From an uncultured Gammaproteobacteria bacterium (lineage in GTDB: Bacteria; Patescibacteriota; Microgenomatia; Daviesbacterales; UBA10151), in assembly GCA_964360965.1 (NCBI GenBank), contig CAYHYM010000009.1, forward strand, positions 1-30,400: a stretch of DNA of 30,400 bases, in the 5' to 3' direction. Below are positions 3,058 through 28,195 of this stretch, one piece after another. The notes beneath the pieces are model-generated. The model was not told where the DNA came from, did not search any database, and saw nothing but the letters and a program-made list of their open reading frames with translations. How positions within the stretch are numbered: position 1 is the first letter of the stretch; the number at the start of each line of letters is the position of its first letter. A program made the translations under genes and the position numbers.

Positions 3058-4446
3058 TTAAAGTTTGAATCTTCTATCCGCTAAAAAAGGGTTGGGTTTT
3101 CTTTTCATCTCTCCTGTACCCAAAAGTATACCTCTTTGCAAAGTAAATTCACCATATTTGTTGTTAATTTGATCTATAGCTTGAATAATTTTTTCTTGAA
3201 CAGCTGATTCTGGTAATAAAGACAGATTTTGGGGAGTTTCACTCTTTAAATTAGAGATAGAAACTCCCACCGTTCTAATTTTATCTCCATTCCAGATAGT
3301 ATGAAATATCTTCCAGGTAGCTTTAAAAATTTCTAGACCATCACAAGTATATGGGATAGTTACTTGCATCCCATCACCATGGAACACACCTCCGAGGTGT
3401 AACTGCATTTCTTCACCTCGGAGGTGGAAGCTATATCTAAACCAGCAGTGGACAGTTCTACCAACTAATTTTTTAGCTCTCAACCTTCTAGCTACTAACT
3501 CTGTCAGTTTTAATAAAAGCTGTTTGATCTCCTCTAGGTTATTAGTATCATGAGAAGTAGTGTGCCTATGCCCAATACTCTTAACCTCTTCTTTCTCATA
3601 AAAAGGGATAATAGGAGCATGATTTATTCCACGACTGCAATCATATAAAAATTGCCCATAGCTTTTAAAATAAAAAATTAAAATATCAAGAGTTGCCTCT
3701 CTTAGCTGTTTAAAATTAAAAATTCCCAGTTTATTCAGCCTATTTTTAATCCCTGGACCTATTCCACAAACAGCATCAAGTTCCAGTTTATCCAAAACCT
3801 TAATTGCCTCTTTCTGATTGGCAATAATCACCAACCCATCTGGCTTTTGTAAAGATCCAGCAAGCTTTGCCAAAAGCTTGTTATATGAAATGCCTATGGA
3901 ACAAGTTATCCACTCACCAATTTCAGTTTTGATTCTTTTTTTAATGCTTTTAGCAATTTCTAATATGTCATCCCCGCGTAGGCGGGGATCCAATAAACTG
4001 TTAGCGCTATTATTTAATTGGATTCCTGCATTCGCAGGAATGACAGAAGTAGGTATCTCTAAAAACACTTCATCTATTGAAAACACCTCCAGATAGGGAG
4101 AATAATCTTTTAGAATATTTAAAAACTTTTTTGTTGTCTCCAAATATTTATCAGAATCCCCTGGGACAATTGTAATTTGCGGACAAAGCTTTTTGGCTTC
4201 CCAAATTTGCATGCCGGTTTTAACTCCGAACTTTTTAGCCTCTACAGAGGCTGCCCCAATCACTGTCCGTTCCCCGCCTCGACTCGCTCGCTCGTCGGGC
4301 GAGGCGGGCATCCTATCTCCACCAGTAACCCCAATTGGTTTTCCTCTCAGCCTGGGATTAGCCTGCTGCTCCACAGTAGCAAAGTAGCTATTAAAATCAA
4401 CATGTAAAATAGTTCTTATTCTTCTTCTACCATCTCCAGAAACCAT
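3058..4446 (-). CDS. dinB: Y-family DNA polymerase IV
   Basis: ILHVDFNSYFATVEQ, KPIGVTGG, SIDEVFLE, SIGISYNKLLAKLAGSLQKPDG, GIGPGIKNRLNKLGI. The ORF is interrupted in frame by three GC-rich elements. Confidence 0.9.
   Translation of the reverse strand: MVSGDGRRRIRTILHVDFNSYFATVEQQANPRLRGKPIGVTGGDRMPASPDERASRGGERTVIGAASVEAKKFGVKTGMQIWEAKKLCPQITIVPGDSDKYLETTKKFLNILKDYSPYLEVFSIDEVFLEIPTSVIPANAGIQLNNSANSLLDPRLRGDDILEIAKSIKKRIKTEIGEWITCSIGISYNKLLAKLAGSLQKPDGLVIIANQKEAIKVLDKLELDAVCGIGPGIKNRLNKLGIFNFKQLREATLDILIFYFKSYGQFLYDCSRGINHAPIIPFYEKEEVKSIGHRHTTSHDTNNLEEIKQLLLKLTELVARRLRAKKLVGRTVHCWFRYSFHLRGEEMQLHLGGVFHGDGMQVTIPYTCDGLEIFKATWKIFHTIWNGDKIRTVGVSISNLKSETPQNLSLLPESAVQEKIIQAIDQINNKYGEFTLQRGILLGTGEMKRKPNPFLADRRFKL
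3386..3426. repeat. pair of inverted REP-like hairpins inside dinB
   Basis: ACACCTCCGAGGTGT (3386-3400) and CACCTCGGAGGTG (3414-3426) are mutual reverse complements. Translated in frame as HLRGEEMQLHLGGV. Confidence 0.7.
3967..4044. mobile_element. 78-nt MITE-like element with terminal inverted repeats, in frame in dinB
   Basis: Left end GTCATCCCCGCGTAGGCGGGGATCCAAT. Right end ATTGGATTCCTGCATTCGCAGGAATGAC, the reverse complement of GTCATTCCTGCGAATGCAGGAATCCAAT. Encodes VIPANAGIQLNNSANSLLDPRLRGDD (26 codons). Confidence 0.75.
4266..4310. repeat. GC-rich hairpin insertion inside dinB
   Basis: CCCGCCTCG (4273-4281) pairs with CGAGGCGGG (4300-4308). Encodes PASPDERASRGGE between the conserved blocks KPIGVTGG and VIGAASVEAKKFGV. 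Confidence 0.65.
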
Positions 4447-4903: not shown

Positions 4904-6397
4904 ATGAAGATATTTGTTATAACGCTATTTCTCCTCTCATTTTTTTTAGTATTCAACTCCCCAGTCAAAGCCATAGTTGATCCCCTCTCTGTTCCTAACA
5001 ATAAATTTGGCATTCATATTATTCAAGCTACTCCTGATGAATCATCTCCGGCGGCCCAACTAGTCAACACCAACGGTGACTGGGGCTATATTACTTTTTT
5101 AATAGAATCCAAGGATAGAAATGAAAGTAAATGGCAGGAGTTTTTTAATGATCTAAGAAGAAAACATCTAATTCCGATTGTTAGGTTAGCCACCAAACCA
5201 GTTAATACTCACTGGGAAAGACCTTATGAAAAAGAGGGTGAAGCTTGGGCCCACTTTTTAGACAAATTAGTCTGGCCTACCAAAAACAGGTATATCATTA
5301 TCTATAATGAGCCAAATCATGCTCAAGAATGGGGAAATTTTACAGATCCTATTTCTTATGCCCATATTTTAAATGACACCATAGATACTCTAAAGAAAAA
5401 GTCTCCGGATTTTTATGTCTTAAATGCCGGTTTTGATGCTTCAGCCCCTCATCAACCACCTAGATTTTTTGATGAAGTAGTTTTTTTACAGGAAATGGAA
5501 AAGGCAGTACCGGGAATTTTTGAAAAATTAGATGGGTGGGTGTCACATTCCTATCCAAATCCGGAATTTTCCGGTTCTCCGGATGCTTTGGGGCGAGGCA
5601 CTGTTCGAACCTACGTTTGGGAACTACAGCAACTGCGTAATTTGGGTGTTTCGAAAAATTTGCCTGTTTTTATCACAGAAACCGGCTGGAAACATGCTGA
5701 AGGATTAACTTTTGAGCCTAGATTCCCTGCAGCAGATACTGTGGCCAGATATTACCAACAGGCTTTTGAAAATGCCTGGAACAGTTCCAGGATCATCGCC
5801 GTGACTCCATTTTTATTAAGCTATCAAGAGCCTTTATTTGCCCATTTTTCCTTTAAAGGACCCACCAATTCCGGACTATATTATCCTCAATATGACACCA
5901 TCAAAAACATGCCTAAAATTTCCGGCCAACCCATCCAGGAAAACAAGGCTACTTTAATCAAAGGTGAGGTCTTTTCATCCATTGTTTCAGGAGAAACTTA
6001 TACCATTTTTCTAACTTTCAAAAATAGCGGCCAATCAATCTGGAATGATGGCTCGCCTCGCTCCTCGCCTCGCGGCGAAGCGGGCGCGGGCGGAGCGGGG
6101 AAAAGGGTGGCTTTGGTGCCAATTGAAAGTGGCAGAGAATTGGGCATAGAACAGATATCCATTCCAGATGGGGTGCAAATTGAACCGGGCAAAGAATATA
6201 CCTTCCAAATTCAACTGAAAGCTCCGCTGAAGGGTATTTTTAAGGTTAGTTTGAATCTGTTTACCGGCAGCCACCCGTTTGATTCAAAACCACCGGTTAT
6301 TTTGCGCCTTTTAACTAAATTAAAATGGAGAAATTCTCCGGCCGGAGAATATATTTTAAGAACTATCGGCACCATAGGTGAATCTACTCAATTATAA
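4904..6397 (+). CDS. secreted clan GH-A-like glycoside hydrolase with C-terminal Ig-like domain
   Basis: Signal peptide MKIFVITLFLLSFFLVFNSPVKA. IIIYNEPNH (acid/base-type NEP motif) and VFITETGW (nucleophile-type TE motif). C-terminal beta-rich region carries a GC-rich insert. Confidence 0.5.
   Translation: MKIFVITLFLLSFFLVFNSPVKAIVDPLSVPNNKFGIHIIQATPDESSPAAQLVNTNGDWGYITFLIESKDRNESKWQEFFNDLRRKHLIPIVRLATKPVNTHWERPYEKEGEAWAHFLDKLVWPTKNRYIIIYNEPNHAQEWGNFTDPISYAHILNDTIDTLKKKSPDFYVLNAGFDASAPHQPPRFFDEVVFLQEMEKAVPGIFEKLDGWVSHSYPNPEFSGSPDALGRGTVRTYVWELQQLRNLGVSKNLPVFITETGWKHAEGLTFEPRFPAADTVARYYQQAFENAWNSSRIIAVTPFLLSYQEPLFAHFSFKGPTNSGLYYPQYDTIKNMPKISGQPIQENKATLIKGEVFSSIVSGETYTIFLTFKNSGQSIWNDGSPRSSPRGEAGAGGAGKRVALVPIESGRELGIEQISIPDGVQIEPGKEYTFQIQLKAPLKGIFKVSLNLFTGSHPFDSKPPVILRLLTKLKWRNSPAGEYILRTIGTIGESTQL
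6051..6100. repeat. GC-rich element (SPRSSPR..GEAGAGGAG family) in frame in the hydrolase gene
   Basis: GCTCGCCTCGCTCCTCGCCTCGCG+GCGAAGCGGGCGCGGGCGGAGCGGGG. Both blocks recur exactly in uvrA at 20723-20793 on the other strand. Confidence 0.8.
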
Positions 6398-6816: not shown

Positions 6817-6919
6817 TTGACAAGTAATAAATAGTATGGTTAAATATACTTACTTGTTAACCGAAAGGTTTACAAGTTCTCGAAGAAAGCCCCGCAAGGG
6901 GTTTTTTTCGTGGTAAAAT
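6817..6919 (+). repeat. 103-nt promoter-hairpin-terminator module, copy 1
   Basis: 102/103 identical to 8352-8454. Contains TTGACA-N17-TTAAAT, a 10-bp hairpin with GAAA loop, an intrinsic terminator, then TGgTAAAAT. Confidence 0.85.
6852..6908 (+). ncRNA. candidate ~55-nt small RNA (copy 1)
   Basis: Predicted start about 7 nt after TTAAAT (6840-6845). Hairpin CTTGTTAACC-GAAA-GGTTTACAAG (6853-6876). Terminator GCCCC-GCAA-GGGGT plus T-run (6886-6908). Confidence 0.35.
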
Positions 6920-7002: not shown

Positions 7003-7074
7003 GGAGACGTTGGTGTAACGGTAGCACAACAGATTGTGGATCTGTTAGCGGGGGTTCAACTCCCCTACGCCTCC
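7003..7074 (+). tRNA. tRNA-His(GUG) with encoded G-1
   Basis: G-1 at 7003 pairs with C73. Acceptor GAGACGT/ACGCCTC (one A/C mismatch), D arm GTGT-AACGGTA-GCAC, anticodon loop TT-GTG-GA, T arm GGGGG-TTCAACT-CCCCT. Confidence 0.8.
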
Positions 7075-8351: not shown

Positions 8352-8454
8352 TTGACAAGTAATAAATAGTATGGTTAAATATACTTACTTGTTAACCGAA
8401 AGGTTTACAAGTTCTCGAAGAAAGCCCCGCAAGGGGCTTTTTTCGTGGTAAAAT
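8352..8454 (+). repeat. 103-nt promoter-hairpin-terminator module, copy 2
   Basis: 102/103 identical to 6817-6919. The only difference is C versus T in the terminator stem. Ends 9 nt before tRNA-Arg. Confidence 0.85.
8387..8443 (+). ncRNA. candidate ~55-nt small RNA (copy 2)
   Basis: Same architecture as 6852-6908. Terminator GCCCC-GCAA-GGGGC followed by TTTTTT. Confidence 0.35.
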
Positions 8455-8463
8455 TAAACATAT

Positions 8464-8536
8464 GCGCCCGTAGTTTAATGGATAGAACGTGTGGCTTCGG
8501 ACCATAAGGTTGGGGGTTCGACTCCCTCCGGGCGCG
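8464..8536 (+). tRNA. tRNA-Arg(UCG)
   Basis: Acceptor GCGCCCG/CGGGCGC, anticodon stem TGTGG/CCATA, loop CT-TCG-GA, T arm GGGGG-TTCGACT-CCCTC. Confidence 0.8.
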
Positions 8537-8546
8537 CACCCAAAAT

Positions 8547-8619
8547 GGGCCGGTAGCTCAACTGGTAGAGCAACTCCCTCTTAAGGAGTAGGTTCAGGGT
8601 TCAAATCCCTGCCGGCTCA
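8547..8619 (+). tRNA. tRNA-Lys(CUU)
   Basis: Acceptor GGGCCGG/CCGGCTC, D arm GCTC-AACTGGT-AGAGC, anticodon stem ACTCC/GGAGT, loop CT-CTT-AA, T arm CAGGG-TTCAAAT-CCCTG. Confidence 0.85.
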
Positions 8620-13354: not shown

Positions 13355-14671
13355 TCATAGTAGCGCTTCCTTATTCCTTAGTTTTCTATGGAAAGTTAAG
13401 GCAAACCTGTGAGCTTCATCACGCAATTTTTGCAAAAGCTGCAAACTTAAGGATTTTTTGGAAAGTTTTATAATTCGAGCCTTGCGAGAATTACTCAGCG
13501 AAATTCGAGCCTTGCGAGAATTACTCAGTGAAGCGCTAATTTCTCCCTCCGGGGGATAGAGCCATTCCCTTCTTTTGGCCAGACCGAAGATGGGTAGATT
13601 GTGATTAGTAGTTTGTAGTTCGTAGTTTACCGCATTAACTTGTCCCTTGCCACCATCTACTATTATCAGATTAGGGATAGGCCAATCTTTGTGTTTTAAC
13701 CTTCTTCTGATCACTTCTCTCATCATTGCTACATCATTAGGTTTGCCGCTGAGGCGAATCTTAAATTTTCTATACTGTGATTTATCAATATCTCCCTCAT
13801 TTAAAACCACCATTGAACCTGTGGCATTTTTCCCTCCAATATTGGAGATATCATATCCTTCTATTCTTAAAGGTAAAGTTTTTAGATTTAAAACTTTTTT
13901 CAGCTCCTGCAGGGCCAAATTTTTTTGATCTTCGAAAAAATTAGAATTCTCCAAATAAGCCTGGACATTGTTTGGTTGAGTGAGATAATTTATTCCGTCT
14001 ATGATTTTTTTAAGTTTACTTGCTTCTTCAAACTTCTCTCTCTCTGATAGCTTTAACATATCCATTGTCAGTTCCTCAATTAATTTATCCTTTTTCCCGT
14101 CCATAAATTTTGAGAATCGGTTGATTATTTTGTTATAGTCTTCCTTGGAAATTAGCCCAACACAAACTCCTGGACATAATCCCAGATGATGATAAAAACA
14201 TGCTCGACGGGTTCGCAAGGCCAGGCCTTGCGAGGCTGAACACCAAGGGAAGACTTTCCTGAGTAGTTTGAGGGTGTTCCTAACAGTTCTAGCTGAAGGA
14301 AAAGGGCCAAAGAATTTTTTTACCCTTCTCAAATCTTGTTTTCTAAGAGTAATAACTTTGGGAAATTCTTCTTTGGTGATACCAATATATAAATAATCCT
14401 TATCATCTGTTAGTCTGACATTATATTTTGGCAAGTATTTTTTAATAAGACTCGCCTCTAAGATAAGCGCTTCCAACTCTGATGCAACAACAATAGTTTC
14501 AACTGAAGATATTGCAGAAGATAACATGGCTGTCTTTGCGCTCAGACCGAATCGGTTGCTGCGTGAAAAATATGAAGATATCCGATGGTATAAATTTATG
14601 GCTTTACCCACATAAATTACCTGACCATCTTTATTTTTAAAAATATATACCCCGGGTTTTTTGGGAAACAT
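13355..14671 (-). CDS. uvrC: excinuclease ABC subunit C, short form without (HhH)2 domain
   Basis: N-terminal GIY-YIG (PGVYIFKNKDGQVIYVGKA..LYHRISSYF), a UVR-like helix pair (EREKFEEASKLKKIIDGI), IEGYDISNIGG and RDEAHRFAL. The ORF stops about 20 aa after the last motif. Confidence 0.85.
   Translation of the reverse strand: MFPKKPGVYIFKNKDGQVIYVGKAINLYHRISSYFSRSNRFGLSAKTAMLSSAISSVETIVVASELEALILEASLIKKYLPKYNVRLTDDKDYLYIGITKEEFPKVITLRKQDLRRVKKFFGPFPSARTVRNTLKLLRKVFPWCSASQGLALRTRRACFYHHLGLCPGVCVGLISKEDYNKIINRFSKFMDGKKDKLIEELTMDMLKLSEREKFEEASKLKKIIDGINYLTQPNNVQAYLENSNFFEDQKNLALQELKKVLNLKTLPLRIEGYDISNIGGKNATGSMVVLNEGDIDKSQYRKFKIRLSGKPNDVAMMREVIRRRLKHKDWPIPNLIIVDGGKGQVNAVNYELQTTNHNLPIFGLAKRREWLYPPEGEISASLSNSRKARISLSNSRKARIIKLSKKSLSLQLLQKLRDEAHRFALTFHRKLRNKEALL
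13472..13531. repeat. 2 x 30-nt tandem duplication inside uvrC
   Basis: AATTCGAGCCTTGCGAGAATTACTCAG(C/T)GA twice, 29/30 identical. Encodes SLSNSRKARI twice. Confidence 0.85.
14203..14238. repeat. GC-rich palindrome inside uvrC
   Basis: CGCAAGGCC-A-GGCCTTGCG (14214-14232). Shares the GCCTTGCGAG core with the tandem unit at 13472-13531. Encodes ASQGLALRTR. Confidence 0.6.
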
Positions 14672-14673
14672 AA

Positions 14674-16665
14674 TTATTTATTCGAAGCAGGTTTTGCAAA
14701 ACGCCTTCTGTAGATAAGTGTTCCTAAAATGGCAAAGTATAAAACTGCCACCACTGCCACGAGTCCCAATGCAATCCAGGGAAAATTCTGTAGGATGAAA
14801 AATGGCCTGACCTTTATCTCATGTCGTTCCTTTATTCCTGCCACCTGAATCTCAATAACATCATCAAAGCTATCCAAAAGAGATTTAGTTCTGAGTTCAA
14901 ATTCAAACTGGGCAAATCCAAAGGAAGGTATTGGACCAGATTGGACAGCAGCCCCATTTAAAATGTTGACCTGTCCGGCATTGACAGATAAGTTTGATGA
15001 CGGAAGAGCGGCATTTCCCAAATTTTCTATTTTTATATTAATTTTATGGGGAAATCCTGCCAAAATTTGCTTTTTTACATCAATGATTAAATTGGGCTGC
15101 GGCTTTCCCAAAAAATCACTTTGTGATAGCTCCACTTTGACATCATGGCTGTCCATCCCGCTCAATTTATATGAGCCGGCAGGAACAGGCTGCTCTGATG
15201 ATGAACCTTTGATAACAAATACAAAATGATTTAAATCCAGCTTATTAAAATAATCAACTCCACCAGTGGTGTTTTGCCAGGTTGGATCAACCATTACCCA
15301 ACCTCGATTATCATCCCAATACTCAGGCCAGGCATGTAAAATGTCGCGAGACAAAGACAGCGGCCGCAACGCAAGATTGGTGGTATAGGCAAATCCGTCC
15401 AGCTCCCTGGCAGGGATCCCGGCAGCCCGGGTTAAGCTGATAAAAAGATCGGTAAATTCCATACAAACAGCAGAGGTTGGGTTATTTAAGGCTGTAACAG
15501 CGCCCAACCTTTCAATATTTTCATTGGAGAGCCTGGAAGTATCATATTGTAAAGTAGATATCACACTCTGATAAATTAGTTTTACCTTTTGCTCTGTTGA
15601 AGAGGGCTGATTAGTACTTAAGATTTCACTTAGTTTACTTTTAACTGTCGGGTGATCTTTTTCCCAATATTTTTGAGTGGTAGTATATTTTTGATAAAGA
15701 CCGGTCGGTAAGACTGGGTTTTTCACTTTTGTTAAGATATAAAGCTTGGCTGATCCGGTGGCCTTAACAGATAACTTTTGGGCTCTTTTCAGTTTATACC
15801 AGGCAAGATAATTACCATCCTCATCTAAAGTCACATTAATCGGCTTTGGCTCAATTCGCTGATAAATCACCTCCTGATAGGCTGTATCCGGAGGCAGGGC
15901 AATATTGGTGAGAACCGGTACCAGATTGGGATTTTCCAAATTATATGTCAAATTAAAATCATAAACTTGAAAACTGCCAAAAGTGGCGGAAACACCTGAT
16001 AATATCAACTGGTCTTTGTCAAATATTAAAAAGGTCCTGCCGGATGAGGTACTCTGTCGTTTTGGGGTGGGACTGATAATGGAAGGCGGACCAAAGCTTT
16101 GAGGAGTGGAAATTGTCAAATTATAACTTTGAAGACCGGGCGCTGATTGAATTTTGGGAGCGGATATTTCCCAGATTTTACCTAAATGCTGGGCAAAATC
16201 AGATGATTTAAAACTAAGGGTAAAAGGCTGCTCTTTTCCTACTCCCGCTATCTGCTGGTTAAACTTAACTGTGATAGAAGTTGAGGTATCTTTTTGCTCT
16301 GATGTCACCTCCATTAAGCCTCCTTGGTCTGAGGCTTTGATATCGGTAATTTGGGTGGCTCCAATAATAAGTTTAAACTGGCTGGCAAAATATTGACTGG
16401 TTAGATTCCTGAGGGTAATTTTTTCAGTAACTGAAGTTATTCCACTTAAGTCTATATCATAAGTTACATCATATGAGGTGGCAAAATCTTGTCCTGAGCT
16501 AGCTTGCCCTGAGCCTGTCGTACTTCGATTCCACTCAGTACGACCCTGAGTGTTAATCGAATGGGTCGAAGGGGTCGAAGGATCTTCGGCAGCAAAGACA
16601 GCAGTCAGTGAAAAGTAAAAAGTAAAAATTGAAAATATAACAGCCAGGAAAATTTTCTTGATCAT
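14674..16665 (-). CDS. transglutaminase-like cysteine-protease-fold surface protein
   Basis: Cys-His-Asp pattern: AVCMEFTDLF, ILHAWPEYW, WVMVDPTW. N-terminal signal peptide MIKKIFLAVIFSIFTFYFSLTAVFA and a C-terminal TM span. The ORF-track start at 16695 is possible but adds 10 non-signal residues. Confidence 0.75.
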   Translation of the reverse strand: MIKKIFLAVIFSIFTFYFSLTAVFAAEDPSTPSTHSINTQGRTEWNRSTTGSGQASSGQDFATSYDVTYDIDLSGITSVTEKITLRNLTSQYFASQFKLIIGATQITDIKASDQGGLMEVTSEQKDTSTSITVKFNQQIAGVGKEQPFTLSFKSSDFAQHLGKIWEISAPKIQSAPGLQSYNLTISTPQSFGPPSIISPTPKRQSTSSGRTFLIFDKDQLILSGVSATFGSFQVYDFNLTYNLENPNLVPVLTNIALPPDTAYQEVIYQRIEPKPINVTLDEDGNYLAWYKLKRAQKLSVKATGSAKLYILTKVKNPVLPTGLYQKYTTTQKYWEKDHPTVKSKLSEILSTNQPSSTEQKVKLIYQSVISTLQYDTSRLSNENIERLGAVTALNNPTSAVCMEFTDLFISLTRAAGIPARELDGFAYTTNLALRPLSLSRDILHAWPEYWDDNRGWVMVDPTWQNTTGGVDYFNKLDLNHFVFVIKGSSSEQPVPAGSYKLSGMDSHDVKVELSQSDFLGKPQPNLIIDVKKQILAGFPHKINIKIENLGNAALPSSNLSVNAGQVNILNGAAVQSGPIPSFGFAQFEFELRTKSLLDSFDDVIEIQVAGIKERHEIKVRPFFILQNFPWIALGLVAVVAVLYFAILGTLIYRRRFAKPASNK
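16491..16590. repeat. GC-rich composite element (CCTGAGC / GGTCGAAGG family) in frame near the N-terminus of the transglutaminase-like gene
   Basis: Contains CCTGAGC x3, GGGTCGAAGGGGTCGAAGG and the hairpin GTCGTAC-N14-GTACGAC. Encodes PSTPSTHSINTQGRTEWNRSTTGSGQASSGQD. Confidence 0.6.
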
Positions 16666-16749
16666 AATGTCATCCCAGAGAATACCGGGATCCATAAATA
16701 TTGTAGCAATTTTATTATGTCATTGCTAGCGAATGATGGAAAGCTAAAA

Positions 16750-16782
16750 TTTAGCTTGACACCTGAGAGGTGTAAACGTAAA
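16750..16782 (+). repeat. REP-like element upstream of the RAYT ORF
   Basis: TTTAGCTTGACACCTGAGAGGTGTAAACGTAAA with hairpin ACACCT-GAG-AGGTGT at 16759-16773. Exact inverted copy at 26126-26158. Confidence 0.85.
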
Positions 16783-16791
16783 ATAAATTTA

Positions 16792-17448
16792 ATGCCTGGA
16801 AGAAAAACTGTTTTTGAGAATGGATATTTTTATCATGTCTATAACCGGGGCTCTGAAAAAAGGGATATTTTTATAAAACCGCAAAATTATCAAAGATTCA
16901 TAAAAACTATGTACTATTATCAGTACGAGGGACCAAAACTAAGGCTTTCCCTACTAAATCAGGACGGATTCCAAAATTTTAAACCGGATCCCAGTAAGAA
17001 ATTAGTTGAAATTATCTGTTATTGCTTAATGCCTAACCACTTTCACATTCTAATAAAACAACTCAAAGAAAATGGAATTTCTAAATTTATTAGTCAATTA
17101 AGTAATAGCTACACCAAATATTTTAATACCAAATATAAACGTGTAGGAGCTTTATTCCAGGGTGTATTTCAGGCAGTTATTATTGAATCCGATGAACAGT
17201 TCATTCATACCTCCAGATATATTCATTTAAACCCGTCAGTATCAACCTTGGTAGAGAACCCTGCCAATTGGCCTTGGTCCTCTTATACCGAGTATGTTGA
17301 TAAGAAAAAGGGTATTTGTGTTAAAGAACCAATAATGAGTCATTTTCCTTCTGTGGAAGCTTACAAAAAATTTGTCTTGGATCAGCTTGATTACGGGAGG
17401 ATTCTCGAAATCTTAAAACACGGAGCCATTGATTATGATTACACCTGA
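16792..17448 (+). CDS. IS200/IS605-type Y1 (HUH) transposase, REP-associated tyrosine transposase (RAYT)-like
   Basis: YHVYNRG, the HUH motif MPNHFHILIK, and the catalytic-Tyr motif SRYIHLNP. Start set to ATG 16792, because the upstream TTG extension is made of REP sequence. The TGA stop lies inside a REP hairpin. Confidence 0.8.
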   Translation: MPGRKTVFENGYFYHVYNRGSEKRDIFIKPQNYQRFIKTMYYYQYEGPKLRLSLLNQDGFQNFKPDPSKKLVEIICYCLMPNHFHILIKQLKENGISKFISQLSNSYTKYFNTKYKRVGALFQGVFQAVIIESDEQFIHTSRYIHLNPSVSTLVENPANWPWSSYTEYVDKKKGICVKEPIMSHFPSVEAYKKFVLDQLDYGRILEILKHGAIDYDYT

Positions 17449-17457
17449 GAGGTGTAA
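17441..17457 (+). repeat. REP-like hairpin overlapping the RAYT stop codon
   Basis: ACACCTGAGAGGTGTAA is identical over 17 nt to 16759-16775 and in the same orientation. Confidence 0.8.
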
Positions 17458-17560
17458 GCCTCACACAAACTACTTCCGATCGAAAACAACTTGTCATGCG
17501 TACAGGCACATAAGGTCTCACCTTAGTTCAACGGTCGTGTTAACAATGTGATAAGTCCGT

Positions 17561-17579
17561 GCTGACACCTGAAAGATGG
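17561..17579 (+). repeat. degenerate REP-like copy
   Basis: GCTGACACCTGAAAGATGG compared with GCTTGACACCTGAGAGGTG. The second arm is decayed. Confidence 0.4.
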
Positions 17580-17589
17580 AAAGGTAAAT

Positions 17590-18177
17590 TTACCTTCTGA
17601 TTTTTTTTAGAATATGTGAAGCTAATCGAGTTAAGTCTCCAGCCAATAAGAATGCATGAATTCTAAGAACTTCTGCTAAGGTAGGTGTGAGTTCCTTTCT
17701 ATTCTCTCCCAACATTTCACCTAGTAGTTCGCTATCATAATAATACTGCTCACTGCGTACTCTTTCATAATCCACTCCATAGCCCGCTGCCTCCATTAAA
17801 TCAATAATCAGCAGACCTGGTAAGGGTAAACTTTCTGCCCAAGTATTAATAACCTCTTTGGGTGGAATAGTTTCAGTTTCACCATTTGCTCCCATTAAAT
17901 TCCATAACAACTCCAACTTTCCCTCTCCAATTCTTCTATCATGTTCTGCCAGAAATTCTTGATGTAATCCCCATATGGTAAGAACCGCCTCTTTAAAAAA
18001 GTCGGGAGTACCTATACTTGCCGCCAAAGAAGGATCACTCACTCTTCCTATTAAATAACGTTCCTTTACTTCTTCTGGAAATATTGAATGTTCAATTGAA
18101 TAAATAAATATTCGGTTGTGAAGTTCTATATATTTATCCCTAGCCAGCTGAAGCTGTTTAGAAATTTGTTCTTTCAT
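17590..18177 (-). CDS. hypothetical protein, apparently co-transcribed with uvrA
   Basis: 195-aa ORF whose ATG (18177) lies 2 nt after the uvrA stop (18180-18182). Helical and acidic, with no motif recognised. Confidence 0.5.
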   Translation of the reverse strand: MKEQISKQLQLARDKYIELHNRIFIYSIEHSIFPEEVKERYLIGRVSDPSLAASIGTPDFFKEAVLTIWGLHQEFLAEHDRRIGEGKLELLWNLMGANGETETIPPKEVINTWAESLPLPGLLIIDLMEAAGYGVDYERVRSEQYYYDSELLGEMLGENRKELTPTLAEVLRIHAFLLAGDLTRLASHILKKIRR

Positions 18178-18179
18178 AT

Positions 18180-21100
18180 TTATAGTATCTTTGCCAAATA
18201 TTGCCCTGTATAGGAGGATTTGATTTTGGATATATCTTTGGGGGTGCCTTCTGCAATAACTTGTCCGCCTTTATCCCCACCTTCCGGGCCTAAATCTATT
18301 ACCCAATCGGTATTTTTAATCACATCAAGATTGTGCTCTATAATCACCACAGTATTTCCATAGTTTACCAGCTTCCTTAAGATGGTTAATAACCTTTCTA
18401 TATCAGCAAAATGTAAACCGGTGGTGGGTTCGTCCAAAATATAAAGAGTGTGACCAGTTGGACGCTTAGATAATTCAGCAGAAAGTTTAATCCTTTGTGC
18501 CTCTCCACCAGACAGCGTGGGAGCTGGTTGGCCCAATTTTATATATCCCAATCCCACATCATTTAGTACTTGCAGTTTATTTTTGATATTGGGAATATTT
18601 TCAAAAAACTTTAAAGCTTCCTCAACAGTCATGTCCAAAACTTCAGAAATATTTTTATCCTTAAAGTGAATTTCCAAAGCCTCCCTGTTGTAGCGGGCAC
18701 CGTTGCAAGCCTCACAAGTCACATAAACATCCGGCAAAAACTGCATTTCAATTTTGAGCTGCCCTTCCCCTTCACAAACCTCACACCTTCCACCTTTGAC
18801 ATTAAAGGAAAACCTGCCTGGTCCATAACCCCTAATTTTAGCTTCAGTACTTTGGGCAAATAGGTCTCTGACAAAGGTAAAGGCTTCTGTATAGGTGGCC
18901 GGATTTGAGCGGGGAGTCCGGCCTATTGGTGATTGGTCTACCAAAACCACTTTATCCACATACTCTACCCCCTCCAGTTCTTTAAAAGCCCCTGGTCTTT
19001 CCTTGGATCTATAAATTTTTTGAGCTAACGCCTTATATAAGATGTCGTGAATTAAAGTAGATTTTCCGGATCCTGAAACCCCTGATATGGCTATAAACTG
19101 CCCTAAAGGAAAATCCACATTGATATTTTTTAAATTGTGTTGAGAAGCACCAAGAACCTTCAAAACATGATTGTCATTCCCGCGCAGGTCATCGACTCCG
19201 AGGTCGCTCAGACTCGAGGAGCGGGAATCTATTTTAATATTATTTATGGATCCCGTATCCCTTCGGCCTCGCTCAGGGCGGGCAAGTTCAGGATGACCGT
19301 GAACAGTCACTTTTTTCTTACCTGATAAATACTGTCCAGTTAAAGATGTAGTACTTTTTTTAATCTGATCCGGAGTGCCTGTGGTTACTATCTCCCCACC
19401 ATGTTCACCAGCTCCTGGCCCAATTTCAATTAATAGATCTGCATTCTCCATCATCTCTGCATCATGCTCATTAACTATCACTGTATTTCCCAAATCTCTT
19501 AATTTTTTTAAAGTTTCAATTAATCTTGAGTTATCTCTTTGGTGTAAACCAATAGAAGGCTCATCTAAAACATACAAAACTCCGGATAAACCCGAACCAA
19601 TTTGGGAGGCCAGCCTGATTCTTTGTGATTCTCCCCCGGCTAAGGTCATAGCAGCGCGATCCAGCGTTAAATAATCCAAACCAACATCAATTAAGAACTT
19701 AACTCTGGCTTGGATTTCTTTTAAAATAGGTTTGGCAATTTGAGTTTCACGATCATTTAAAATAGATTCTATCACTTCACTACGTTTCGCTCCAGAATGA
19801 CTATTCCCCAATCTTTTAATCCATTCCAAAGCCTCTTTAATAGATTGTGTCACCACTTCTGCAATATTTAATCCATCAATGGTTATTGACAAGGCTTCAT
19901 CTTTAAGTCTTGCTCCATGACACTTAGGACAAATCTCTTTAACCATATATTTTTCTATTTCCCTTTTCACATAATCAGATTCGGATTCTTGATATCTTTG
20001 TTTTAGGTATGAAACCAAACCTTGAAAGCTAGATTTAAAATGAGTCCATCTTCCCTCTCTGTTTCTTCCTTCCACTCTAAATTCTTCGTCCCCAGCACCA
20101 TTAAGTAGCACATTTCTGGCTTTCTCAGATAATTCACCCAGTCTGGTATTTAAATCAAAACCGTAAACTTTGCCTACTGACTGAATAAGTCTTGAGAACC
20201 AGGTTTCATGAGTGGCTAACTTTTGCCATGGTAAAATTCCACCTTCTGCAATAGATAAAATGGGGTTTAAAACCATTTCCGGATCAATTTCCAAAAGTGA
20301 TCCTAAACCATGGCAGGTAGGACAAGCTCCATGAGGAGAATTAAAAGAAAATAGTCTTGGTTCCACCTCGGATAAGGCAATATTGTCAACCGGACAGGCA
20401 AATCTTTCAGAATAAAGATGATCGTCCATTTTCTTGGGATTTTGGGGAAATTCTAAAGAAGCGTCCAGGACTTCAGAAACAATCACGGATCCTTCACCTA
20501 ATTTGAGCGCTGTCTCGATGGATTGGGAGAGCCTGTTTATAATGTCATTCCCGCGCATGCGGGAATCCAATTCCGAACGTGACTTTGTTAATTGGATCCT
20601 CCTCGAGTCTGAGCGACCTCGGAGTCGAAGACCTGCCTTCGCAGGGATAACAGACTTATCCAATATGAGTCTGTCCACTACTGCATCGATAGTATGCTTA
20701 TTAGTTTTAATCAACACTAAATCCCCCGCTCCGCCCGCGCCCGCTTCGCCGCGCCCTGCGTCGCCGGAGGCGCGAGGCGAGGAGCGAGGCGAGTCTGTTA
20801 AGTCTCTAATTTGTCCATCAACCCTAACCTTTGAAAAACCTTTTTTCCTCAAATCTTCAAAAAGTTGGAAATATTCTCCTTTTCTGTCTTTAACCACAGG
20901 AGCCAAAATCATTATTCTTCTCGAAGACCCTGAGCGAGACTTCGACGGTGAGTCTTTCGACCCTGAGCTCAAGACCGAAGGGCTCAGTCGAACCGCGTAG
21001 CGAGTCGAAGGGTTCCCTACCACTTGTTCCACAATTTGTTCTACTGACATTCTACTAATCTCCCTTCCACAAATTGGACAATGGGGATGGCCAACCCTGG

Positions 21101-21443
21101 CAAATAAAAGCCTTAAATAATCATAGACCTCAGTAGTTGTTCCCACAGTAGAACGTGGATTATGTGAAACACCTTTTTGGTCAATAGAGATGGCCGGGGA
21201 TAAACCCTCAATATAATCAACATCAGGCTTGTCCATTACCCCTAAAAACTGCCTGGCATAAGCAGATAAAGATTCCACATATCTTCTTTGACCTTCTGCA
21301 TAAAGGGTATCAAAAGATAAAGAAGACTTGCCGGAACCGGAAATCCCCGTTAAAACCACCAACTTGTTCTTGGGAATTTCCAGATCAATATTCTTGAGGT
21401 TATGCTCTCTCGCCCCTTTTATAATAATCTTATCTATAGCCAT
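18180..21443 (-). CDS. uvrA: excinuclease ABC subunit A, expanded by in-frame insertions
   Basis: GISGSGKSSL and GVSGSGKSTL Walker A motifs. Two LSGGE signatures (LAGGESQRIRLA, LSGGEAQRIKLS). Zinc modules CPxC...CxxCxG. 1087 aa. Confidence 0.95.
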   Translation of the reverse strand: MAIDKIIIKGAREHNLKNIDLEIPKNKLVVLTGISGSGKSSLSFDTLYAEGQRRYVESLSAYARQFLGVMDKPDVDYIEGLSPAISIDQKGVSHNPRSTVGTTTEVYDYLRLLFARVGHPHCPICGREISRMSVEQIVEQVVGNPSTRYAVRLSPSVLSSGSKDSPSKSRSGSSRRIMILAPVVKDRKGEYFQLFEDLRKKGFSKVRVDGQIRDLTDSPRSSPRASGDAGRGEAGAGGAGDLVLIKTNKHTIDAVVDRLILDKSVIPAKAGLRLRGRSDSRRIQLTKSRSELDSRMRGNDIINRLSQSIETALKLGEGSVIVSEVLDASLEFPQNPKKMDDHLYSERFACPVDNIALSEVEPRLFSFNSPHGACPTCHGLGSLLEIDPEMVLNPILSIAEGGILPWQKLATHETWFSRLIQSVGKVYGFDLNTRLGELSEKARNVLLNGAGDEEFRVEGRNREGRWTHFKSSFQGLVSYLKQRYQESESDYVKREIEKYMVKEICPKCHGARLKDEALSITIDGLNIAEVVTQSIKEALEWIKRLGNSHSGAKRSEVIESILNDRETQIAKPILKEIQARVKFLIDVGLDYLTLDRAAMTLAGGESQRIRLASQIGSGLSGVLYVLDEPSIGLHQRDNSRLIETLKKLRDLGNTVIVNEHDAEMMENADLLIEIGPGAGEHGGEIVTTGTPDQIKKSTTSLTGQYLSGKKKVTVHGHPELARPERGRRDTGSINNIKIDSRSSSLSDLGVDDLRGNDNHVLKVLGASQHNLKNINVDFPLGQFIAISGVSGSGKSTLIHDILYKALAQKIYRSKERPGAFKELEGVEYVDKVVLVDQSPIGRTPRSNPATYTEAFTFVRDLFAQSTEAKIRGYGPGRFSFNVKGGRCEVCEGEGQLKIEMQFLPDVYVTCEACNGARYNREALEIHFKDKNISEVLDMTVEEALKFFENIPNIKNKLQVLNDVGLGYIKLGQPAPTLSGGEAQRIKLSAELSKRPTGHTLYILDEPTTGLHFADIERLLTILRKLVNYGNTVVIIEHNLDVIKNTDWVIDLGPEGGDKGGQVIAEGTPKDISKIKSSYTGQYLAKIL
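19173..19297. mobile_element. TIR MITE-like element in uvrA with nested insertions
   Basis: The GTCATTCCCGCGCAG..GCGGGAATC end is split by a 33-nt element at 19188-19220. The GGATCC..TCAGGATGAC end contains a CTGAGCG/CCGAAGG-type segment at about 19254-19287. Confidence 0.65.
20544..20651. mobile_element. TIR MITE-like element in uvrA with one nested 33-nt insertion
   Basis: Intact end GTCATTCCCGCGCATGCGGGAATCCAATT. The other end, ATTGGATCC|CTGCCTTCGCAGGGATAAC, is split by TCCTCGAGTCTGAGCGACCTCGGAGTCGAAGAC (20600-20632). 108 nt, 36 codons. Confidence 0.75.
20723..20793. repeat. GC-rich element (SPRSSPR..GEAGAGGAG family) in frame in uvrA
   Basis: Reverse complement is CTCGCCTCGCTCCTCGCCTCGCG + 21 extra nt + GCGAAGCGGGCGCGGGCGGAGCGGGGG. 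The 23-nt and 26-nt blocks are identical to 6052-6100. Confidence 0.8.
20920..21013. repeat. GC-rich composite element (CCTGAGC / GTCGAAGG family) in frame in uvrA
   Basis: Contains CCCTGAGCGAGAC, CCCTGAGCTCAAGACCGAAGGGCTCAG and GCGAGTCGAAGGG. Encodes about 30 residues (STRYAVRLSPSVLSSGSKDSPSKSRSGSS) where canonical UvrA has a short linker. Confidence 0.65.
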
Positions 21444-25688: not shown

Positions 25689-26366
25689 ATGCTATACATT
25701 ATTCCCACTCCCATAGGTAATTTAAAAGATATCACTTTAAGAGCACTTGAAGTTTTAAAAGAGGTGGATTCTATAATTTGTGAAGACACCAGAAGAACTG
25801 GATTACTTCTTAATCATTACCAGATTAAAAAGCCTCTTTTGGTATTGAACGATTACAACGAAGCAAAAATCCTGGATTCCACTATAGAGCGGCTCAGAGC
25901 TGGAGAGAATCTTGCTTTAGTGTCTGATGCAGGTACCCCACTTATTTCTGATCCAGGATATAAACTGGTCAGAGAGTGTTTCCACCAGGGGATTCCGGTT
26001 GATTCCCTCCCGGGTCCTTCTTCTGTTATCACAGCTTTAACACTTTCCGGTCTTCCTCCTGATAAATTTTTATTTCTAGGATATTTACCGGAAAAGCTTG
26101 GTCACAGAAAAACTTTACTAGAAACTTTACGTTTACACCTCTCAGGTGTCAAGCTAAACCCAACTTATATTTTATATATAGCTCCCCATAAACTGATCAA
26201 AACTCTCGCTGAGATGAAAGAAGTTTTTGGGGATATTGAAGTAGTTTTAGCCCATGAATTAACTAAAATCCATCAAAGTGTGGAAAAGAAAAAAATAAGT
26301 GAATGGCTGGAAACATTAAAAAATCCAAAGGGAGAGTATATATTACTATTCAACAAGGGGTGGTAA
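25689..26366 (+). CDS. rsmI: 16S rRNA (cytidine1402-2'-O)-methyltransferase
   Basis: LYIIPTPIGNLKDITLRALEVL, IICEDTRRTG, VSDAGTPLISDPG. Carries a 33-nt REP insertion in frame. Confidence 0.85.
   Translation: MLYIIPTPIGNLKDITLRALEVLKEVDSIICEDTRRTGLLLNHYQIKKPLLVLNDYNEAKILDSTIERLRAGENLALVSDAGTPLISDPGYKLVRECFHQGIPVDSLPGPSSVITALTLSGLPPDKFLFLGYLPEKLGHRKTLLETLRLHLSGVKLNPTYILYIAPHKLIKTLAEMKEVFGDIEVVLAHELTKIHQSVEKKKISEWLETLKNPKGEYILLFNKGW
26126..26158 (-). repeat. REP-like element, 11 in-frame codons inside rsmI
   Basis: TTTACGTTTACACCTCTCAGGTGTCAAGCTAAA is the exact reverse complement of 16750-16782 (33/33). Confidence 0.9.
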
Positions 26367-26666
26367 AACCTTTCCCCAGTAAATTCCCTCCCATTCTTCC
26401 TCACTTAATTCTCTGCGTGCTTTTTCGAAATCTTCAGAGAACTTACGTTTTTCCTCAGAATCTGGAGAAGATATCCCACTATCTAGAGGACCTACAGCTA
26501 AAACGCGCTCATCTCCTATAACAACAGTTCTGCCAGTGTACCTGGGGTCACCTAAAATCTGCTCTTGAAAAAAACCTTCGTTTTTACTGTAAGCTGCAAT
26601 GGCAGCTCTACTCCTAGCAGCACTGGGATTTTCTGGGGACAATCTTTTTATTTCTACTTTACTCAT
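26346..26666 (-). CDS. hypothetical protein
   Basis: 106-aa ORF that overlaps the upstream PEP-enzyme-like gene stop by 4 nt. Its 3' end overlaps the rsmI 3' end by 21 nt, convergently. Confidence 0.45.
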   Translation of the reverse strand: MSKVEIKRLSPENPSAARSRAAIAAYSKNEGFFQEQILGDPRYTGRTVVIGDERVLAVGPLDSGISSPDSEEKRKFSEDFEKARRELSEEEWEGIYWGKVLPPLVE

Positions 26667-28195
26667 ATACTTTTCCTTAGTATAACTCTATTTTCTGCAT
26701 TATACAACAAATCTTTTGCACTATTTGCCTCATATCTTTCCACCACCACCCCATAAACTCCCCTCTCCACCAAAAATTCCAACACTTCAGGATATAAAGC
26801 CAAACTTCCATAAGTTATAAACGGTATCTTAGATTTATGTAATAGTTTTAACCCATCCTCCATAAATTTTAATAAACCACTCACTTCGTTTTTGTAAAAC
26901 ATCAAATCCTCCTGTGTGGTGTCGAATCCATTTAAATGAGCTATCAGTTCATCCAGGTTTAACACCACTCCATCCAAACCAGCTACCAGATAATCCTCCA
27001 AATTAACAATATTTTCCGGTACAGCTACTTCCAGCCAAAGCTGTAAGGAGTTTTTTCTGGACAACTTTTTAACAGCCAGTTCTCTTTTAATTTGTAAAAA
27101 CTCCCCAACTCCTCTAACAAACGGAATAACTATGTGAATATTATTTATGCCTTTTTTAAGACTGCCATCTGGCAGTCGCAATTTATGCTTATGCCTTATA
27201 AAATCAGCTGCATCCACCATGGGCTGGAAAAGACTCTGTTGATGCAAAAGCCTTAATGTCCCCCTGACTTTACCCATCCCCTCTGATTTATCAGCCAGTT
27301 TAAATAAAATGGGAGAACTTGGAAAAGTTGCGGCAGATTCCACCAATCTAAAAACCAAATCCTCAAAAGAATCTCTTACGTTATTTAGATCAAATATTTT
27401 CTCAGAAGCAATATAGATTCCATCAACTGCCCTTTCCACTACCAATCCCGTAGATAAATCCAAAAAGACTTTCACGGCACTTAATACCTTAGGTGTCCTA
27501 TCTGGACCACCTCCCAGGTGTATGTCCACACCGGGTGTGTGGTAGCTTGACACCCCGGGGTGGGTATAGGGCTTAATTCCAACAATTTTAACTCCCCTAT
27601 CAACAATCCATTCATACTGATGAGGTATAAACAACTTTTTATTAGCTTCTCTGACTATCTCATCCAATTTTTTCAAATCATTAGGAGCAAGTTTCCCCCA
27701 TTTGACATTAATCACAGTATCATCCAGTATGGGATCAAAATAAGCTAACCCTAAGCTCCCTACCTTTTTTACAAAAGTTACCACCTGAGGCTCCAAATTC
27801 TCTGTAATGCCCTGATAAAAACCCTCTTTCCAAAGTCTAGCTTTAGTCTGTTCCAGCCATAACTCAAGAAGCGTAAGCCAAAGATTTTTGATGGATTTAA
27901 TCTGTACTCCATTTAATAAGAAATGGTTGTGGTTGCCAACCTCTTTTTTCAAAATTACAGGGATAGGTGTGGAATTTATTTCTTTTTTTACCAGGGTTAA
28001 GCTTTGCTCAAAAATTTCCTTTGATCCAAAATCGTAATGCTCAAGGATTGTTTTAAGATGTAAATCAGGCGGGGTAACCACTATTCCTGCTCCCACCGGC
28101 AAGATTGTCCGTGCCAGTTTCCCCAAAGCCACATTTAACTGGCCAAAAATTGGGAAATCTTCATCCAGTAAAACTTTTATGGGCAGAATCTCCAT
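26663..28195 (-). CDS. PEP-utilising-enzyme (PpsA/PPDK TIM-barrel)-like protein
   Basis: HIVIPFVRGVGEFLQIKREL and LWLEVAVPENI...AGLDGVVLNLDELIAHLNGFD resemble the PEP-utilising TIM-barrel blocks. Carries a cluster of three REP-like hairpins in frame. Confidence 0.45.
   Translation of the reverse strand: MEILPIKVLLDEDFPIFGQLNVALGKLARTILPVGAGIVVTPPDLHLKTILEHYDFGSKEIFEQSLTLVKKEINSTPIPVILKKEVGNHNHFLLNGVQIKSIKNLWLTLLELWLEQTKARLWKEGFYQGITENLEPQVVTFVKKVGSLGLAYFDPILDDTVINVKWGKLAPNDLKKLDEIVREANKKLFIPHQYEWIVDRGVKIVGIKPYTHPGVSSYHTPGVDIHLGGGPDRTPKVLSAVKVFLDLSTGLVVERAVDGIYIASEKIFDLNNVRDSFEDLVFRLVESAATFPSSPILFKLADKSEGMGKVRGTLRLLHQQSLFQPMVDAADFIRHKHKLRLPDGSLKKGINNIHIVIPFVRGVGEFLQIKRELAVKKLSRKNSLQLWLEVAVPENIVNLEDYLVAGLDGVVLNLDELIAHLNGFDTTQEDLMFYKNEVSGLLKFMEDGLKLLHKSKIPFITYGSLALYPEVLEFLVERGVYGVVVERYEANSAKDLLYNAENRVILRKSI
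27508..27562. repeat. cluster of three REP-like hairpins inside the PEP-enzyme-like gene
   Basis: CACCT-CCC-AGGTG (27508-27520), CACAC-CGG-GTGTG (27527-27539), and GCTTGA-CACCCCGGGGTG (27545-27562). Encodes HPGVSSYHTPGVDIHLGGG. Confidence 0.7.

Follow-up and report, generated by a model that had tools for sequence, protein, structure and literature searches.

A 30,400-nt stretch of contig CAYHYM010000009.1 (assembly GCA_964360965.1), from an uncultured bacterium whose GTDB lineage lies in the Patescibacteriota (Daviesbacterales), carries within its rsmI gene a 33-nt palindromic element that recurs, inverted, beside a gene for a Y1/HUH transposase. The whole stretch is referred to here as the window, and the features in question are collected in Table 1. 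The element resembles the repetitive extragenic palindromes (REPs) that are associated with tyrosine transposases (REP-associated tyrosine transposases, RAYTs). The gene that hosts it is a bona fide rsmI: its product scores 225.4 bits against the TIGR00096 RsmI model (curated cutoff 167.9), also matches Pfam PF00590, aligns with Escherichia coli RsmI (PDB 5HW4) at an E value of 1.3e-54, and retains all the family-invariant residues. The nearest named relatives are Candidatus Daviesbacteria, a group of the candidate phyla radiation (CPR).

Table 1. Features of the window that bear on the rsmI element (R1, covariance model of the hairpin family; aa, amino acids).
Feature	Position	Strand	Remarks
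rsmI, 16S rRNA C1402 2'-O-methyltransferase	25689..26366	+	225 aa, intact; TIGR00096 and PF00590
REP-type hairpin in frame in rsmI	26126..26158	+	33/33 match; R1 46.4 bits, E 4e-10
Y1/HUH transposase, RAYT-like	16792..17448	+	218 aa; PF01797, E 1.6e-9
5' hairpin of transposase gene	16750..16782	-	9 nt before ATG; R1 50.6 bits, E 1.9e-11
3' hairpin of transposase gene	17429..17467	-	R1 35.3 bits, E 1.3e-6
Third hairpin-like copy, degenerate, weakly assigned	17553..17591	+	ACACCTGAAAGATGG; R1 19.1 bits, E 0.16

The element in rsmI, TTTACGTTTACACCTCTCAGGTGTCAAGCTAAA at 26126-26158 of the plus strand, is the exact reverse complement of 16750-16782 at all 33 positions, as the first-pass annotation of this DNA had stated. 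No comparable match arose in 100 shuffles that preserved dinucleotide composition, even when three mismatches were permitted, and this rules out chance or low complexity as its source. The identity also ends on both sides, as had been claimed: TTTAG is preceded by aaaa in one copy and by tggg in the other, and GTAAA is followed by ataa and gttt, respectively. When the two copies are compared on the same strand, they agree at only 25 of the 33 positions, a level of agreement that arises because the 33-mer is itself a palindrome; the inverted orientation of the two copies is thus real. The block is symmetric around its loop (15 + 3 + 15 nt) and forms an imperfect palindrome, with a 6-bp core stem (ACACCT/AGGTGT), a 3-nt loop (CTC), and 12 of 15 positions paired. 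Folded as single-stranded DNA, it reaches a dG of -4.5 kcal/mol (z -2.9).

In size and shape, the 33-mer is what is expected of a REP (a stem-loop of 20-40 nt), and its stem is backed by covariation. The window's rsmI copy is a singlet, with no inverted doublet, and the family numbers three to four copies within the window. A GTAG or CGTC tetranucleotide at the foot of the stem is not conserved on either strand of the 33-mer, nor in the family alignment A4, in which the conserved flanks are TTTACG and AAGCTAAA. Rfam holds no family at either hairpin site, tRNAs being its only matches. A scan for ACACCTGAGAGGTGTAA in 185,579 species genomes—a set that does not include the window's own genome—returned 14 matches, mostly at chance level and in unrelated taxa; the two relevant ones lie in related loci L009 (the same contig as L027) and L016. 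The viral contigs scanned for the repeat gave one match, also at chance level. The contig derives from Hainich groundwater well H51, and three replicate assemblies of that well (L001-L003) carry an identical rsmI with an identical 33-mer.

The transposase encoded at 16792-17448 contains an HUH motif (NHFHIL), a catalytic tyrosine (SRYIHLNP), and the sequence WPWSS, so that all three RAYT motifs (HUH, Tyr in YIxxNP, and C-terminal WPxS) are present. Against the NCBIfam model NF047646 ('REP-associated tyrosine transposase'), it scores 59.5 bits (E 3.2e-16); the cutoff is 80, and by this measure of its sequence the protein is RAYT-like rather than a certified equivalog. Among PDB structures, it is closest to E. 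coli TnpA-REP (4ER8, E 0.083), and the motifs of the two pair as lmpnHfHil/vlpeHmHci, srYihlNP/vdYiyiNP, and nWPwSs/dWPfSt.

Hairpins border this gene at both ends, which bears out the earlier description of the rsmI segment as a copy of a RAYT-flanking hairpin. Read on the minus strand, 16750-16782 has the same polarity as the rsmI copy. The core of the 3' hairpin, 17441-17455 (ACACCTGAGAGGTGT), overlaps the TGA stop codon of the transposase gene, shares the polarity of the 5' hairpin, and folds with a dG of -6.2 kcal/mol (z -6.7); the core of the third copy, 17565-17579, lies downstream of the gene and contains three mismatches. In every genome examined (the window, L023, L024, L025, and L026-28), hairpins flank the transposase at both ends, and in the window, L023, L025, L026, and L028 they score best on the same strand. 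The inverted arrangement of flanking hairpins that characterises REP/RAYT pairs is not found at the transposase, whose two hairpins share one polarity. The unit instead has the organisation of IS200/IS605 elements, in which same-polarity hairpins bracket a Y1 gene and homology ends at the element: when positions 16700-17600 of the window are aligned with 2264-3160 of L028, similarity starts exactly at the 5' hairpin and decays just past the 3' hairpin. In L028, the left arm is also partly duplicated (ctagcttgacac tagcttgacacc).

The gene has a conserved place in four genomes, lying between a transglutaminase-like gene and uvrA in the window, L023, L025, and L026-28; L024, L031, and L097 have it at other places, and L006 lacks it at the syntenic position. 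Each locus holds one transposase copy, a count that applies to loci and not to whole genomes. The contig of L009 and L027 (CAYIDT010000015.1) has a Daviesbacteria-type transposase unit and synteny and is titled 'uncultured Gammaproteobacteria bacterium'; its bin is probably mislabelled.

Alignment A4 comprises nine rsmI elements and 12 non-rsmI hairpins, either RAYT-flanking or solo, aligned without gaps over 39 nt. Paired cells make up 81% of the alignment as against 71% after shuffling, a level that none of 500 shuffles reaches, and double-sided changes affect three core pairs out of six (AU11/CG7, CG15/AU6, and UA14/CG6). The covarying stem types are ACACCT/AGGTGT, CAACCT/AGGTTG, ACACCC/GGGTGT, and CCACCC/GGGTGG, the first two of which also replace one another between genomes in the RAYT-flanking stems. 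The rsmI elements of L004, L023, and L109 form a perfect ACACCC/GGGTGT stem of 10-11 bp, and the element of L112, of the CAACCT type, matches the RAYT hairpins of L025 and L023 at 26 of 33 positions and its nearest rsmI element at 23.

When 825 kb of related loci is scanned with the covariance model R1, which was built on A4, nearly every member of the family lies beside a RAYT gene or in rsmI; the few exceptions are solo sites (L016, L025:14967, L069, L073, and L040), of which L016 and L025:14967 have been checked as intergenic. The rsmI segments, judged by these alignments, belong to the transposase-hairpin family and share its stem subtypes. Doublet-like arrays occur only in some foreign rsmI alleles, such as that of L030. 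A RAYT gene lies within 10 kb of rsmI in only two of 80 metagenome loci (L031 and L097), where most had been expected.

The first-pass annotation regarded the rsmI copy as a recent transposition-like event in a housekeeping gene, a reading that is only partly supported: the orthologues speak against a one-off hit on a naive gene. RsmI proteins that are 75-82% identical to that of the window are of about the same length, and many have homologous segments at the same place (LKLHLEGAKLN, LRSHLKGVKLN, and LRLHPWGVN); others are shorter there. The signature H-L/P-x-G occurs in approximately 42 of 158 non-redundant Daviesbacteria-like RsmI sequences (about a quarter). At the DNA level, the element occupies the same codons, on the same strand and in the same frame, in L006, L007, L004, L023, L109, L111, L112, L031, and L051, and homologous segments are present in rsmI from unrelated samples and assemblers. 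The most similar full-length proteins (P0002-P0009) all carry an element-like segment. Element-free rsmI genes also exist, namely the empty site of L025, P0120, and the types in which the stretch spans 31-33 aa, and no such hairpin is present at the DNA level in RsmI sequences only 53-57% identical to that of the window. Conservation of the segment in distant orthologues had been named beforehand as evidence against a recent transposition-like event; the segment is indeed held by many orthologues at 75-82% identity, but it is missing at 53-57%.

When the variable patch is masked, the closest RsmI include element-free 33-aa types (P0013, 86.1%) and element-bearing ones (P0002, 84.8%). Third codon positions of rsmI are about 50% identical between element-bearing species, and synonymous sites are thus saturated.

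Two further kinds of variation have been observed at this site. Longer loops of 42-49 aa, as in L030 (a 42-aa variant), P0007, P0038, P0040, P0044, and P0103 (for example, EGVKLFHLEGGIRSHLSF), appear to hold two or three overlapping CACCT/AGGTG arms, with the repeat in a doublet- or cluster-like arrangement. A second class of palindrome, with the peptide ..(G/D)R..N.., occupies the same RsmI loop in other Daviesbacteria (L032, L034, L048, L050, L053, L058, and L079), its arms covarying around a CG-rich centre (TTCTCGACCGAGAA, CTTTTCGATCGAAAAG, TACACGGCCGTGTA, and TTCGCGGGCGCGAA). These palindromes suggest that the RsmI loop hosts more than one palindromic family.

Within the coding sequence, the 33 nt start on the last base of Thr146, run through ten complete codons (LRLHLSGVKL), and end two bases into Asn157. 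The earlier reading of 11 in-frame codons is thus right as to the frame, which the gene keeps throughout as (T)LRLHLSGVKL(N), but needs amending as to the codons, two of which the element supplies only in part. The element lies wholly inside the open reading frame (ORF), contains no stop codon, and has element-free counterparts among the orthologues, all of which is typical of in-frame intragenic palindromic elements. E. coli RsmI had been thought to have no equivalent residues. A gap does exist in the HMMER alignment of the window protein with 5HW4, but it spans seven residues and not 11. The stretch between the GYxPxK and PHK motifs is hypervariable in RsmI (31-50 aa), with 38 aa in the window protein, 32 in E. 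coli, and 31-36 in most others. The net gain in length, as read from these alignments, is two to seven residues rather than 11, which means that native rsmI codons were replaced.

An AlphaFold2 model of the window RsmI, built on 65 sequences (mean pLDDT 80.9), places a helix at residues 139-151, a loop at 152-158, and a strand at 159-164, with pLDDT dipping locally to 68 over residues 151-160. The repeat-coded residues 147-157 are thus predicted to extend the helix and then to form the loop that follows it. The first-pass annotation had asked whether the inserted residues form a surface loop; in the model, they form the end of a helix as well as a loop. The extra residues are presumably tolerated and may be neutral for function.

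The explanation that we favour, with moderate confidence, is that a REP-type hairpin resides at a long-standing or recurrent site in RsmI and that the window's copy was recently copied or overwritten there. The 33-mer would be part of a resident, vertically inherited Y1/HUH (RAYT-like) unit consisting of hairpin, gene, and hairpin, and the hypervariable stretch of RsmI would be a long-standing or recurrent home of this repeat family across Candidatus Daviesbacteria. The first component of this explanation, that the in-frame rsmI segment derives from a REP and lies at a site of recurrent occupation, is very probably correct. The second, that the window's copy was recently copied or overwritten at a site already occupied, most likely as an entire 33-nt unit, is held more loosely, the evidence inclining only somewhat in its favour. 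The putative route is single-strand cleavage and rejoining of hairpin DNA by the Y1 transposase; alternatively, short-patch conversion may have acted on an older resident rsmI copy.

Evidence for recent copying comes from the contrast between two comparisons: the rsmI element of the window agrees with the RAYT hairpin of the same genome at 33 of 33 positions and with the best foreign rsmI element at only 28. With third positions at about 50% identity, a neutral copy that was never refreshed would be unlikely to remain identical, which favours a recent copying event that took in all 33 nt. The donor was probably of the RAYT-hairpin type, since that hairpin predates the divergence from the L026 lineage, whose own hairpin agrees with that of the window at 31 of 33 positions in A4.

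Several observations weigh against this explanation. With adjacent bases included, the 5' RAYT hairpin is identical at 35 of 35 positions between the window and L028, while the transposase gene shares only 87% of its nucleotides; the hairpin thus changes much more slowly than coding sequence does, and a perfect match is no proof of a very young copy. The recent event proposed by the first-pass annotation is accordingly weakened, even though the 33/33 identity on which it was based stands. A rsmI element can be compared with the RAYT hairpin of its own genome in three cases (the window, L023, and L031). In L023, the two differ widely (ACACCC against CAACCT; 15 of 33 positions identical), and in L031 they match only in part, and hence renewal is neither continuous nor universal. 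P0012 and P0120, the only pair usable for a comparison of gain and loss, are 94% identical outside the patch; within it, a 48-nt stretch in one stands in place of a 33-nt stretch in the other, with no clean insertion or deletion. This replaced patch indicates that exchange of allele patches between lineages or species contributes to the patchy distribution of the element. A neighbour-joining tree of the 158 patch-masked RsmI sequences has a star-like shape, with element-bearing alleles scattered over it and too little resolution for gains and losses to be counted. Counts of the repeat cover the 30.4-kb window and the 825 kb of related loci.

Among the alternatives, a single ancient insertion in an ancestor of this Daviesbacteria group, followed by vertical descent, would dispense with recent copying altogether, the rsmI and RAYT copies being kept identical by strong purifying selection on them as transposase recognition sites or as hairpins. 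The slow change of the RAYT hairpin relative to its gene between the window and L028 fits such a history, as do the compensatory changes that maintain pairing in the rsmI elements and the identity of elements across species, which at 58-82% is close to the 71-75% averaged over the gene, a level expected under vertical descent. The switches between ACACCT, CAACCT, and ACACCC stems, together with the changes in the arms, parallel the RAYT subtypes, however, and each such switch would require at least four coordinated substitutions if it arose by drift. Neither in L023 nor in L031 is the rsmI element identical to the genome's own RAYT hairpin, and element-bearing and element-free alleles are interleaved, as in P0012 and P0120. 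We consider descent from one ancient insertion improbable.

A further proposal, in which a transposition-like event recently struck an unoccupied rsmI for the first time and kept the frame by luck, with the other species representing independent hits on a preferred target, draws on the same 33/33 match and on the presence of the element-free P0013 beside P0002 among the closest patch-masked relatives. Y1 transposases of the IS200/IS605 group insert beside short specific target sequences, a habit that would suit a preferred target. Boundaries, strand, and frame are nevertheless identical in at least nine lineages and across three stem subtypes, and the most similar full-length proteins, P0002-P0009, already have the segment. 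Moreover, the addition of 33 nt to forms of 31-36 aa would yield 42-47 aa, and not the 38 that are found. We therefore consider a first-time insertion unlikely. The reverse direction, with a native RsmI sequence captured by the transposase unit as its flanking hairpin, might appeal to loosely similar residues in some distant RsmI (LHSVKV and LHEVKA). It is rejected, as highly improbable, on three grounds: the transposase is hairpin-flanked at both ends in every genome examined, including L025 with its element-free rsmI; distant RsmI lack the hairpin at the DNA level; and solo copies exist elsewhere, those of L016 and L025:14967 being intergenic. The RAYT hairpin sequence is, in addition, older than the split between the window and L026. 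Finally, the contig is metagenome-assembled at low coverage (approximately 3-5x), and collapse or chimera formation at a short repeat, of which the first-pass annotation itself had warned, might be suspected. This is rejected as scarcely credible, the three replicate assemblies and the deposited contig giving the same sequence; unique, conserved RsmI coding sequence lies on both sides of the element, which at 33 nt is shorter than a sequencing read, and homologous rsmI elements come from unrelated samples and assemblers.

A bolder variant of the favoured explanation, which we think rather unlikely to hold, makes the RsmI loop a maintained docking site at which the transposase renews the hairpin from a master copy, or has the rsmI hairpin itself under selection. 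In the latter case, the hairpin may serve as a protected reservoir copy in a genome nearly without intergenic space or as a control point on rsmI, acting through the transposase or at the RNA level.

In-frame palindromes of related kinds are already known. REPs may sit entirely inside ORFs as inserts that encode 20-30 residues, over half of these inserts being dimers or grouped repeats; DNA repair genes, uvrA and uvrB among them, contain an excess of such intragenic REPs, different REPs have been found at about the same recB site in two Xanthomonas species, and a likeness to the palindromic elements read in frame in Rickettsia has been pointed out (Di Nocera et al. 2013, PMC3733652). The rsmI element shares with the GTAG/CGTC-tagged intragenic REPs a short hairpin linked to tyrosine (RAYT) transposases, a position wholly within a conserved ORF, and the addition of some 10-30 residues. 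It differs from them in lacking the GTAG/CGTC tag, in its seemingly low copy number, and in its CPR host with a tiny genome. A further difference is that many species, although deeply divergent, have the same site in rsmI filled, and that the stem subtypes found there match those of the hairpins beside the transposase. Rickettsia palindromic elements (RPEs; Ogata et al. 2000/2002, cited in PMC3733652) are likewise in-frame palindromes in the housekeeping genes of reduced genomes, tolerated in surface regions of the protein and inherited by related species. RPEs are, however, longer (~100-150 bp for RPE-1), far more numerous, and without a known cognate transposase, whereas the rsmI element is 33 nt long and has a Y1 transposase adjacent.

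The REPIN-RAYT systems of Escherichia and Pseudomonas resemble the window's unit in having a Y1/HUH gene at a conserved syntenic position, flanked by a presumed recognition hairpin, and in the co-divergence of hairpin and transposase lineages. Classical REPs, by contrast, are extragenic repeats with hundreds of copies, which are arranged as inverted doublets (REPINs), bear a 5' GTAG, and are inverted at the RAYT gene; the window hairpins are of one polarity, only a handful of copies has been seen, and the protein falls below the NCBIfam RAYT cutoff. IS200/IS605 elements such as IS608 also place a Y1 gene between same-polarity subterminal hairpins, with homology between genomes bounded by the hairpins. 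The window unit differs in occupying the same chromosomal position in several diverged genomes, more like a resident gene than an active multi-copy insertion sequence, and the solo hairpin in rsmI has no counterpart in the biology of IS608. The rsmI element is thus a further case of the kind represented by in-frame intragenic REPs and RPEs; its unusual feature is that a single RsmI loop has been occupied, whether persistently or repeatedly, in many CPR species that are deeply divergent.

Other repeats have been observed in the window. UvrA, encoded by uvrA at 18180-21443 of the minus strand, comprises 1087 aa as against 965-993 aa in four relatives, and its gene has seven window-specific in-frame inserts (20958-21005, 20928-20939, 20739-20780, 20589-20603, 20550-20570, 19773-19790, and 19164-19262). 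Most of these coincide with dispersed repeats, namely a 38-nt inverted pair (19184-19221 and 20599-20636), GC-rich 23-30-mers, and a GGGAAT-type palindrome, and they echo the published excess of intragenic REPs in uvrA (PMC3733652). Positions 6052-6100 (ORF 4904-6397, plus strand) and 20724-20793 (uvrA, minus strand) share GC-rich exact reverse complements of 30/30 and 23/23 nt, CGCGGCGAAGCGGGCGCGGGCGGAGCGGGG and CTCGCCTCGCTCCTCGCCTCGCG, a second kind of in-frame repeat found in two unrelated ORFs. A third palindromic family, TGTCATTCCCGCG-N-CGCGGGAATCCA, is present at 3957-3992, 4016-4045, 16659-16694, and 20534-20572, its copies lying in a dinB-like Y-family polymerase ORF (3058-4446), in uvrA, and at the 5' end of the transglutaminase-like ORF. 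Beside rsmI, in ORF 26663-28195 (minus strand), a REP-like double hairpin at ~27495-27535 (CACACCCGGTGTG ... ACACCTGGGAGGTGG) encodes HTPGVDIHLGGGPDRTPK in a hypervariable linker; the rsmI loop of L039, another Hainich contig, has a near-identical peptide and DNA (HLGGGPDTPPRK and CCACCTGGGAGGTGGACCAGATA). Longer duplications comprise a 103-nt direct repeat of 99% identity (6817-6919 and 8352-8454) that adjoins tRNA genes (7004-7074; 8464-8536 and 8547-8619), and a 30-nt, perfect-length tandem duplication of 97% identity at 13472-13531 in ORF 13355-14671 (minus strand), which encodes an in-frame 10-residue repeat.

To our knowledge, the copying of REP-type hairpins by their tyrosine transposases has never been directly observed. 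Classical REP systems consist of hundreds of copies with no defined target. The window's system has few copies (three to four in the window and few in related loci), with one of them proximal to the transposase and another at a single, precisely bounded, recurrent site, and empty, old, and fresh-looking variants of this rsmI site occur across many species. The RAYT hairpin and the rsmI site thereby offer a concrete donor/target pair for biochemistry and, if the docking-site reading were true, they would constitute a tractable, low-copy system with both the donor and the target of REP copying defined. For the annotation of CPR genomes, the element is a caution that short exact repeats within genes are not always assembly errors and can be genuine, heritable features. 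More broadly, it extends the in-frame palindromic 'decoration' of housekeeping proteins to CPR bacteria.

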